Part shown: positions 48,501-50,703 of the stretch, piece after piece
Numbering within the stretch: the first letter of the stretch is position 1
Layout: the number at the start of each line of letters is the position of its first letter
Assembly: GCA_963693365.1 (NCBI GenBank)
Contig: CAVNZM010000002.1
Location: forward strand, 8,281,059 to 8,345,058
From: Amoebidium appalachense
Lineage: Eukaryota > Protista > Ichthyosporea
Direction of reading: 5' to 3'
DNA length: 64,000 nt
Translations under genes and position numbers: made by a program
The notes under the pieces: model-generated
What the model saw: the letters and a program-made list of their open reading frames with translations, nothing else
What the model was told of the DNA's origin: nothing
Database searches by the model: none

Positions 48501-50703
48501 TCCCATGCAAACGTACTTATCCCCTTCCCCCTCCCCTCCCCCCCCCCCCCCCCCTCCTCCCCCCCCCCTTCCCCCCCCCTCCCCCCACCCCCCCCCCACC
48601 CCCCGCCCTGTTGAATCAAGTTGTACCTCCTGCTGCTGGGCAGACAGGAACCCCCAGCCTCTCCCCTTCCCCCTCCCTCCCCCCCCCCCCCCCCACCCCC
48701 TCCCCTGTAAGCACATACGCATTTTCCGCCGCACTGCATTAGTTTGCACACACATATTCACCGTTTTGCTCACCTTGCTTGCATAAGCAACCCTGCTCGT
48801 CTTTGATCAAGACGGGTTGACCCTCCCAAGTTCAGTTGATGCTGCTGTCTGAGTTGGAGAGTCGTATATACGCGGGCTAAGGGGTCGAAACTCAGACGCA
48901 TTTGATGACTTGGGCCCTCCCTGAGGATGGGCTCTGCTTATGACGCATACTGTGCGCATGGCTGATGTTACATACTTGAATGTTTGCCTTTGCATGTGTC
49001 CTTCGTGTATGCGTACTTCGTACCGTGTTCCGCATTCAAACCCCCCACCCCTCCCCCTCCCCCCCATCTCTGCGCCCCACATTTTCCCAATCCATGTAAA
49101 TGCCCATACACACGTACACTACAAACAACACAAAAACAAGAATGTTTGGGTTGTAATGGTTGGGGCGGGTGCGATTTTTTTGCAACAGACTGGCACGCCG
49201 TGTGGGTGTTTTCGTTCTTGTCTTGCGTGCCTGTCTGTGCGGTGTGTGTGTATGCGCACGCCTGTTTGTGCGGCTTGTCCAGTGCGTGTGCGCCTGTTTA
49301 TGCGGTTTGTGCAGTGCGTGCGCGCCTGTTTGTGTGGTGTGCGTGTGTGTGTGTGTGCGGTGTGTGTGCGCCTGTTTGTGCGGTGTGCGTGTGTGTACAC
49401 ACACGTGTATTAACGAATGAGTTAGTGTGGATATCTTGCTTGCTCGCAAGTTCTCTCTTCCACCGTTTCCCTGCACATTTCTTTGGTGTCTTTAGGGGGC
49501 TAGTTGTAGGGTGTGTCCTGTTTTCTGGTTCATAATTTTCATATTTTCTTTCACTTCGTTTTCCATCTTCTCGCTTCGTTTTCCACCTTCCAAGCCCCCT
49601 CCCCCCCCCCCCCCCCCCCCACCCCACCCCACCCCATCCCTCCCCCCCCCCCCCCCCCCCCCCCCCCCCCCCGCTCTAAAACAGCCACACACGCTCGCAC
49701 GCACGCTCGCCGGCACACACGAGCTCACGCACACACGCGCGTGCACGCACACGCACACGCACACGCACACGCGCGTGCACACACACACACACACACACAC
49801 ACACACACGCACACACACACACACACACCAAACACACGCACACACGCACACGTACACACACGTACAGACCACTTCCACCGTGAGTGTGTGGACAAGTGGC
49901 TTGGTCTCAACCAGGCCTGCCCCCTCTGTCTGCGCAACATCGACGGCAGCTCACAACCACAAGGTATGTCCATCCCCACATCCCCCCTCCTCTTCCCCCC
50001 CCTCCCTCCCCCCCCCCCCCCCCCCCCCCCCCCCCTGGGCGGCCGCCGCCGCGGCCATCGCCACCGCCAAAACCATTGCATATGCAGTGTTTTGTTTTTC
50101 GTTGGTTATCTGGTTTCAGAGAATTGTGTGTGTGGGTGGGTGGGTGTGCGTGTGCGCCTTTGCGTGTGAGTGTCCGCACGCCTGCCCGTGAGCTGGGGCA
50201 TTAGTGTGTGTGTCTGATTATGTTGGCAAACGTGTGTGTGTGTGTGCCTCAATCTGTTTCAGTGCCTGTGTGTTTGTGCATGTGTGTGTGTAAGGGGAGG
50301 GGGTGAGAGGAGGGGAAGGTGGTGGTGGGGGGGGGGGGGGGGGGGGGGGGGGGGGGGGGGGGAAGAGGGTAAGGAGAGGTGTGAAAGCCAAAAACCGGTT
50401 GTGCAAATCGGGTGATCTTGTGCACTTTGACCGTTACTGACATGAACGGTGGGCGGCTCACAGCAAACACGAGCAACATGTCTGCCCCAGCCTAACGGTA
50501 CAAGTGACCTTTCTCCGGGAAATTGCAGACGAATTTCCCCGTTGTGATCATACATGGTATATCTACTGGCAGGGATATCTCCCTGCAGGGTTTTTTCTTT
50601 GAGGAGTTATATCTCTTAAGGGGTTAAAACTTTGTTCCCCCTTTTTTTGCCCTCTCTGTATCATTTCTGCTTTGTTTGTAACGGAATCTCAGATGATACG
50701 TAG
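42555..50703 (+). CDS. Multi-pass membrane RING-H2 E3 ubiquitin ligase
   Basis: Exons 42555-42674, 43743-43871, 44617-44705, 45296-45417, 45982-46069, 46839-46989, 47682-47768, 48386-48512, 49868-49963 and a tentative last exon 50693-50703 join in phase. TM segments carry 'GNVW' and 'CCLPC'. RING-H2 reads CVVCLGDY...LPCKHHFHRECVDKWL...CPLC. Confidence 0.9.
42713..42937. repeat. Perfect (TG)n microsatellite, ~225 bp, first intron of the RING gene
   Basis: Directly visible. Confidence 0.97.
48782..48942 (+). ncRNA. Unclassified structured RNA element, copy A (intronic, sense), ribozyme candidate
   Basis: Multi-stem pairing is conserved with copy B through compensatory changes; G-U wobbles favour the + strand. 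See findings. Confidence 0.65.

Follow-up and report, generated by a model that had tools for sequence, protein, structure and literature searches.

A predicted split-core permuted hammerhead in a probable Penelope-like repeat of Amoebidium appalachense

The window analysed here is a stretch of 64,000 nucleotides from the ichthyosporean Amoebidium appalachense (contig CAVNZM010000002.1). Two genes in this otherwise intron-rich region consist of a single long ORF, an MFS transporter gene (2720-4399, +) and a cathepsin B gene (55818-56762, -); the best named matches of the latter, over 55821-56762 (-), are to Ihof (64%), CFRG (57%) and Awhi (53%), labels that we take to denote ichthyosporean species. 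A frame at 8592-9230 (+) matches a Saposin A-type domain (E 7.5e-12). The orphan gene P0001 (11906-16070, +; 231 aa), for which no Pfam domain is listed, was the sole match when one exon was searched against longer proteins. The many-exon gene at 19062-41318 (-) has Pfam SNF2-rel_dom and Helicase_C matches and is presumably CSB/Rad26-like, judging by its motifs. A gene near the 3' end of the window, which we take to be uridine-kinase-like from the motif CGGTASGKT, has within one of its introns, at 62300-62760, a direct duplication of ~220 nt (62320-62545 and 62545-62760). Poly-C or poly-G tracts with at least 10 C in a row are frequent (146 in the window, 97 on + and 49 on -, or ~1 per 440 bp), extended stretches of (CA)n and of (GA)n are also present, and a repeat search of the window returned simple repeats only.

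Three clear copies of a repeat (A, B and C) and three decayed fragments (D, E and F) lie in these 64 kb (Table 1; some of the 5' limits were placed by eye at a C-tract). For copy A, homology to thousands of contigs starts at 48705 and poly-C begins at 49041, and the next exon of its host gene carries a RING Pfam match. Copy B sits 3' of a short exon of the uridine-kinase-like gene, for which no Pfam match was found; the next exon is outside the window. In copy C the profile match (nhmmer) is restricted to the final 60 nt of the profile (14806-14864), and the transcript-derived protein P0001, which joins both flanking exons, skips it. Two other readings of copy C were dropped: as a coding exon it is absent from P0001, and for an RNA split by its own intron, AGGTC proved to be element sequence in the loose ends of contigs. 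We also dropped a match at 57504-57526 (-), which occurs without any other element parts. The SNF2/helicase gene contains 65 antisense intronic C-tracts and no recognised repeat copy.

Table 1. Repeat copies in the window and the elements of the predicted fold, the latter numbered for copy A.
Feature	Position	Strand	Remarks
Copy C, 3' half only	14805-14950	+	block G, stem I strand, CUGAGGA (14844-50) and tail; intron 14570-16028
Repeat copy A	48706-49040	+	5'-truncated; poly-C tract on either side; intron 48513-49867 of RING-H2 gene
Structured domain of copy A	48782-48942	+	predicted split-core permuted hammerhead
Two-part closing helix, 5' strand	48782-48793	+	48782-89 with 48935-42 (8/8); CCC 48791-93 with GGG 48929-31 (3/3)
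Hairpin between closing helix and G10.1	48796-48816	+	8/8 pairs; pairing probability 0.84-1.0
Upstream stem II 5' strand, GACCC	48819-48823	+	G10.1 is 48819; pairs with 48882-48886
Stem I-II interaction helix, 5' strand	48825-48831	+	pairs with 48908-48914; 7/7 in A, 5/5 in B
Block S	48847-48859	+	stem III strand 48847-54; GUU 48853-55; stem I strand GGAG 48856-59
Inner hairpin and 3-nt linker (AAG in A) between stems I and II	48860-48881	+	4/4 in A and B
Block G	48882-48897	+	stem II 3' strand (GGGUC in A); GAAA 48887-90; stem III strand
Stem I 3' strand CUCC, core CUGAGGA (48921-27), U after A9	48917-48928	+	
B-type 3' tail fragment F	54484-54560	-	ends at poly-C; blastn E 0.002; 68% to tail of B
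Decayed fragment D	61375-61643	+	ends at poly-C; nhmmer E 0.03-0.05, blastn E 0.001; weak
Decayed 3' tail fragment E	61682-61811	+	between poly-C tracts; nhmmer E 0.3-0.7; 60% to tail of A; weak
Repeat copy B, second subfamily	63547-63943	+	between poly-C tracts; 5' limit approximate
Structured domain of copy B	63673-63830	+	predicted cut after 63744

An earlier note on this DNA had proposed that 48782-48942 and 63673-63830 are two copies of a structured intronic RNA. The two are indeed homologous to each other (nhmmer E 1e-12), with 113 of 161 positions identical (~70%) and ~50% in the flanks. Every helix named in that note is present: the closing stem (8/8 pairs in A, 7/8 in B), the hairpin (8/8), the long arm (7/7 plus 8/8 in A, 5/5 plus 8/8 in B), the inner hairpin (4/4) and GACYC/GRGUC (5/5, all Watson-Crick in both copies, with one double change). 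Among the 44 base pairs that could be compared between A and B, the two full copies that make up the covariation evidence, 32 are the same, nine are double changes, two are one-sided changes and one is broken in B; 11 of the 12 differing pairs keep pairing, and in 99% of the B-aligned depth 63825 C>T restores the pair that copy B lacks. These counts were made without the MAFFT alignment, which misaligns the long arm. In this comparison of two sequences, one double change falls in stem I, one in stem II, two in stem III and two in the stem I-II interaction helix; in a C-type subfamily present in contig loose ends the long arm is compensated once more. The pairings have thus been kept through compensatory change, and the + strand is the RNA strand, both as claimed. 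In 64% of the A-family depth, 48860 A>C disrupts the outermost pair of the inner hairpin, and the putative CCC/GGG part of the closing helix is weak in the nested ensemble (0.16). Folding z-scores are modest (-2.9 for A, -0.6 for B), as is expected of a pseudoknotted fold.

The earlier note, which did not recognise this RNA, missed the crossing helix of stem I and the word CUGANGA; the RNA carries a full hammerhead core in permuted order. The core words are GUU, GAAA and CUGAGGA in A, and CUGAGGA recurs in C. The NUH triplet between stems III and I is GUU in A and B, GAAA is accompanied by A15.1-U16.1 and G10.1-C11.1, and the crossing helix, GGAG/CUCC in A and GGG/CCC in B, supplies a stem I of 4 bp (A) or 3 bp (B), next to 5 bp in stem II and 8 bp in stem III. 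The blocks follow each other in the non-circular order S-G-C. A U at position 17 can pair with A14 and makes a poorer substrate than C17 or A17; our literature search found no paper on the quality of U17 substrates. The 160-nt fold is predicted, and likely, to be a self-cleaving hammerhead ribozyme, whose RNA would be cut after GUU, at 48855 in A and at 63744 in B.

No variant is listed in CUGAGGA of A among A-aligned contigs, nor at 1% in block G, and of the 24 variants that reach 1% on A none lies within ACCCTG, GTCGAAAC or CTGAGGATGGGCTC; ACCCTG, the hairpin and the upstream strands are present in two window copies rather than three. Copy B of the window reads UCGAUGA at 63809-63815, a private change: CUGAUGA is found in ~98-99% of the B-family depth, through 63809 T>C with 63810 C>T (99% of X2 depth, 77% of X1 depth) or, in a further 21% of X1 depth, a 1-nt deletion that restores the same word. 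The contigs aligned on B are of B type, 99% carrying the B-specific T at 63825. The A and B families differ at N7, the only free position of the core, and across subfamilies ~70% alike the catalytic positions are kept, with variation at N7 only. Among the B variants listed, three of low share touch the core region: 63776 A>T, 63771 G>T and 63818 G>A, which account for less than 1% of DNA depth and, in run X14, for 7-26%, carried there by 1-2 contigs. Roughly half of the X14 depth has T at both 63809 and 63810, a possible U3 subfamily. Runs X15-X20 contained about a tenth of the words. While 97 contigs of run X14 and none of run X24 align on B, these counts show neither transcription nor its absence, and that X14 is RNA is a guess.

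The Rfam scan called for by the earlier note gave no match at the gathering score anywhere in the window; copy A had no hammerhead match up to E 10, one chance match appeared at E 4.3, and neither snoRNA, snRNA, riboswitch nor any other family was matched. Likenesses to C/D and H/ACA RNAs, the TPP riboswitch, RNase MRP and the VS, hairpin and pistol ribozymes were weighed and dropped. A descriptor of the wiring, composed after A had been seen so that copy A fits it by construction, hits A and one locus in 500 dinucleotide-shuffled windows; a looser descriptor hits three loci (strict core) or six (relaxed) in 200 shuffles. Exact family patterns gave no match in viral contigs and none in metagenome contigs. 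With looser core patterns, 0 of 120 loci from viral contigs (57 of 64 parts) and 1 of 117 from metagenome contigs (7 of 64 parts) passed the descriptor; the one that passed (L195) resembles bacterial coding sequence and has overlapping helices, and we took it as chance.

The strand GRGUC has two possible partners for stem II, GACYC upstream and GGCUC downstream, and the choice between them determines how A9 is joined to G10.1: the core is split if stem II forms with the upstream strand, and is continuous apart from a 2-nt insertion if it forms with the downstream one. On the latter reading the RNA would be an ordinary type-SGC hammerhead with two nucleotides inserted after A9, the upstream GACYC being a competing, off-switch strand. 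The downstream GGCUC, unchanged across A, B and C, can indeed pair 5/5 with GGGUC of A (two wobbles) and with GAGUC of B (one wobble), SGC-1 likewise has a U after A9, and our descriptor returns this pairing too. Against this, the upstream stem II is entirely Watson-Crick with G10.1-C11.1, covaries, is transcribed first and is the more stable (-7.1 versus -3.5 kcal/mol in A, -5.0 versus -4.4 kcal/mol in B), and with the 1-nt insertion that has been published the downstream strand would form 4/5 (A) and 3/5 (B) pairs, with a G.G clash. The interaction helix, which is the outer helix of the long arm, is compatible with the upstream strand only, which places it 1 nt after stem II and ending just before stem I, the same position that the I-II interaction helix has in the published oligo table entry for SGC-1. 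In the consensus 3' ends of Naiad-4_Dst and of octopus Naiads, discussed below, the downstream bases are unable to pair as stem II. We therefore regard the continuous-core reading as quite unlikely. Most likely, in our model, stem II is formed by the upstream GACYC strand, and the closing helix and the hairpin interrupt the core between A9 and G10.1. From A9 the chain would then continue via U to GGG/CCC and on to the closing stem, G10.1 would follow the hairpin, and closing helix and hairpin would bring the two nucleotides together as a multi-way junction.

The nearest known relatives in topology are the type-SGC ribozymes (HRIMA-1 and variants, with the order S-G-C) described by Eckert et al. 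2023 (PMC10085705). They share with the repeat the S-G-C order, three crossing core stems, a 3-nt linker before stem II, a U after A9 and a helix that links stem I and stem II at their far ends, which is attached here to the upstream stem II strand. They differ in that block C of the repeat is likely interrupted after A9, the 5' strand of stem II lying upstream of block S. That paper treats the blocks as uninterruptible, with at most one or two inserted nucleotides in known alignments, and describes no helix of comparable size within the core; a single extra nucleotide is known between A9 and G10.1 (PMC1636495; PMC4209133). In the SGC pattern the linker between stems I and II has 0-8 nt, as opposed to 22 nt (A) or 21 nt (B) here, containing a hairpin; the total length is at most 104 nt as against 160 nt, the triplet GUU sets the repeat apart, and the motifs come from metatranscriptomes rather than from the genomic DNA of a eukaryote. 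The published SGC pattern (CUGAUGAUG, then at least two more stem II pairs) fails on a G.G clash at the second further pair. The fold is predicted to work like a hammerhead and is, by the published pattern, not of type SGC.

The structured domain is not a stand-alone family, as had been thought, but the core of a longer repeat found in thousands of contigs. The repeat unit measures 335-400 nt, with the 160-nt fold in its middle. At 80% likeness, the contigs aligned on 331 bases around A numbered 6685, 3090, 3735 and 13, and those aligned on 393 bases around B numbered 2921 and 1452, summed contig depth not being copy number. From this depth, together with three copies and three fragments in 64 kb, we infer thousands of copies in the genome. 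Copies A, B and C and fragment E adjoin a poly-C tract at their 3' ends, as do 1% of positions, and poly-C follows 63942 in 39 contigs. Homology around B spans all of 63552-63942, and its 5' part is covered 10- to 100-fold less deeply; this gradient, copies C-F, and head-to-tail joints with poly-C spacers inside single contigs attest to 5' truncation and partial head-to-tail copies. These features make it likely that the repeat is a non-autonomous Penelope-like retroelement, of Naiad/Chlamys type, that inserts into poly-C tracts, for which the 146 tracts of the window would offer dense targets. No reverse transcriptase (RT) or GIY-YIG domain was found among the 149 of 876 window frames scanned.

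The earlier note had counted three intronic copies, all sense to their host gene, and had read them as an RNA kept by selection on its structure. A and B are full copies and C is a 3' half; the sense orientation holds for all three, with three genes only (two-sided p 0.25). An intronic RNA family with a host function, each copy being selected within its gene, would account for the sense orientation of 5/5 intronic copies and fragments and for their occurrence in 5 of 48 C-tracts that are sense as against 0 of 84 that are antisense (post hoc Fisher p 0.006); these tracts are however not independent, and per gene p is 0.25. Such a function is highly improbable given that thousands of contigs carry the repeat, that copies are truncated and decayed, that the core of window copy B is damaged and that the host genes are unrelated. 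The compensatory changes do speak for selection on RNA structure, but with B damaged and C, D, E and F fragmentary, and because the fold is part of a high-copy mobile repeat, the targets of that selection were most likely the mobile founder lineages of the subfamilies rather than the individual intronic copies.

In Craig et al. 2021 (PMC8557442), Naiad/Chlamys elements are reported to be without canonical hammerheads, and eight 'HHR_half_core' families are listed whose second core half lies at a distance of 35-50 nt, to one side or the other. Of Chlamys elements the paper notes (C)n targeting, 5' truncation and non-autonomous forms arranged head to tail; it has no occurrence of 'ichthyospor'. 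The repeat shares with this group microsatellite targeting, 5' truncation, head-to-tail copies and non-autonomous forms, whereas Naiads prefer (TA)n and the repeat sits in (C)n and is known without ORF or partner. We inspected by eye the terminal 200-600 nt of 11 out of 54 Naiad and 4 out of ~49 Chlamys consensus entries, whose names were assigned from the next header and table order. In this sample, the 3' ends of Naiad-4_Dst, Naiad_Obim and Naiad_Ovul (ostracod and octopus) have the same wiring with other stem sequences: a short closing helix, a hairpin, an upstream stem II strand, an interaction helix and stem III, with UUC or GUA triplets, a 5-bp stem I and a 3-nt linker. In these three, the nucleotides that follow CUGAUGA are unable to make stem II and are paired with a strand ahead of the hairpin; stem II is GACGC/GCGUC or GACAC/GUGUC. 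Naiad_Esco combines the order S-G-C with GUU and a weak stem II, and GUU also occurs in Naiad_Hpol. The ends of Naiad-3_Nbra, Naiad_Hpol, Naiad_Smim and Naiad_Parc read as intact type-CSG hammerheads. Two metagenomic sequences of that type were known before. In all, 7 of the 8 half-core entries read as permuted hammerheads; no hammerhead could be resolved by eye in Omin, Dst-3, Tama and four Chlamys ends, and none of three (C)n-targeting Chlamys ends has a core.

Other hammerhead-bearing retroelements resemble the repeat less. Non-LTR retrozymes (bioRxiv 10.64898/2026.07.22.740005; PMC7229834) are, like it, short, non-coding and hammerhead-bearing, and are thought to be mobilised by Penelope-like elements; they form tandem arrays with type I hammerheads, in contrast to a permuted ribozyme in mostly dispersed, poly-C-targeted copies. 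The hammerheads of Penelope pLTRs (Cervera and de la Pena 2014, PMC4209133) are type I motifs of minimal size in which stem III is all but absent, unlike the 8-bp stem III and non-circular order seen here. Within the literature searched, which was that without subscription papers and bioRxiv supplements, we found no paper on an interrupted core, on ichthyosporean hammerheads or on permuted hammerheads in Naiad/Chlamys, and the main text of PMC11244446, on a TE-rich ichthyosporean genome, does not contain 'Penelope', 'SINE' or 'ribozyme'. Taken together, the fold and its repeat are probably best explained by a split-core permuted hammerhead carried by a non-autonomous Penelope-type (Naiad/Chlamys) element.

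How such a fold might serve the element can be modelled. Transcripts from host introns or from tandem copies would be cut after GUU, and because ~30 bp in the closing helix, stem II, the interaction helix and stem III would retain the 5' product, the cut RNA would be a nicked, re-ligatable molecule rather than two parted ones. We propose that genomic copies span the cut site because the RNA would stay nicked and could re-ligate. Copying by an RT-endonuclease supplied in trans and primed at G/C runs, as target, truncation and tandem joints suggest, would then give rise to truncated and head-to-tail copies. At the predicted cut site contig depth does not rise, and none of the listed loose ends falls there; where inserted copies begin is thus not set by cleavage. 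This pattern fits a nicked RNA, but it also speaks against a simple processing of 5' ends and agrees just as well with a fold that is derived from a hammerhead, catalytically silent, and kept for binding by the retroelement RT or another protein. This alternative, to which U17 in both copies, a stem I of only 3-4 bp and the spread of Naiads without a canonical hammerhead (PMC8557442) also lend some weight, seems unlikely to us: every catalytic position is kept across subfamilies ~70% alike, with only N7 varying, and the homologous wiring in the Naiad entries has the canonical triplets UUC and GUA.

We lean, if by a narrow measure, towards a fuller model in which the fold is an active hammerhead whose CUGANGA block has been cut away from stem II and is re-docked by the closing helix and hairpin. 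It would then be the hidden ribozyme of the Naiad/Chlamys clade, older than animals since it is common to the ichthyosporean repeat and animal Naiads, and would act in retrotransposition as a nick-and-religate device without product release. The repeat adds to the group a non-animal host, a (C)n target, a GUU form and an extra hairpin. If the model is true, this hammerhead topology would break the rule that core blocks are uninterruptible and would lie outside the six permutations thought possible, and a named lineage of eukaryotes would harbour a non-circularly permuted ribozyme in high copy number. With 7 of 8 half-core entries reading by eye as permuted hammerheads, the puzzle of Naiad/Chlamys elements reported without canonical hammerheads becomes testable.
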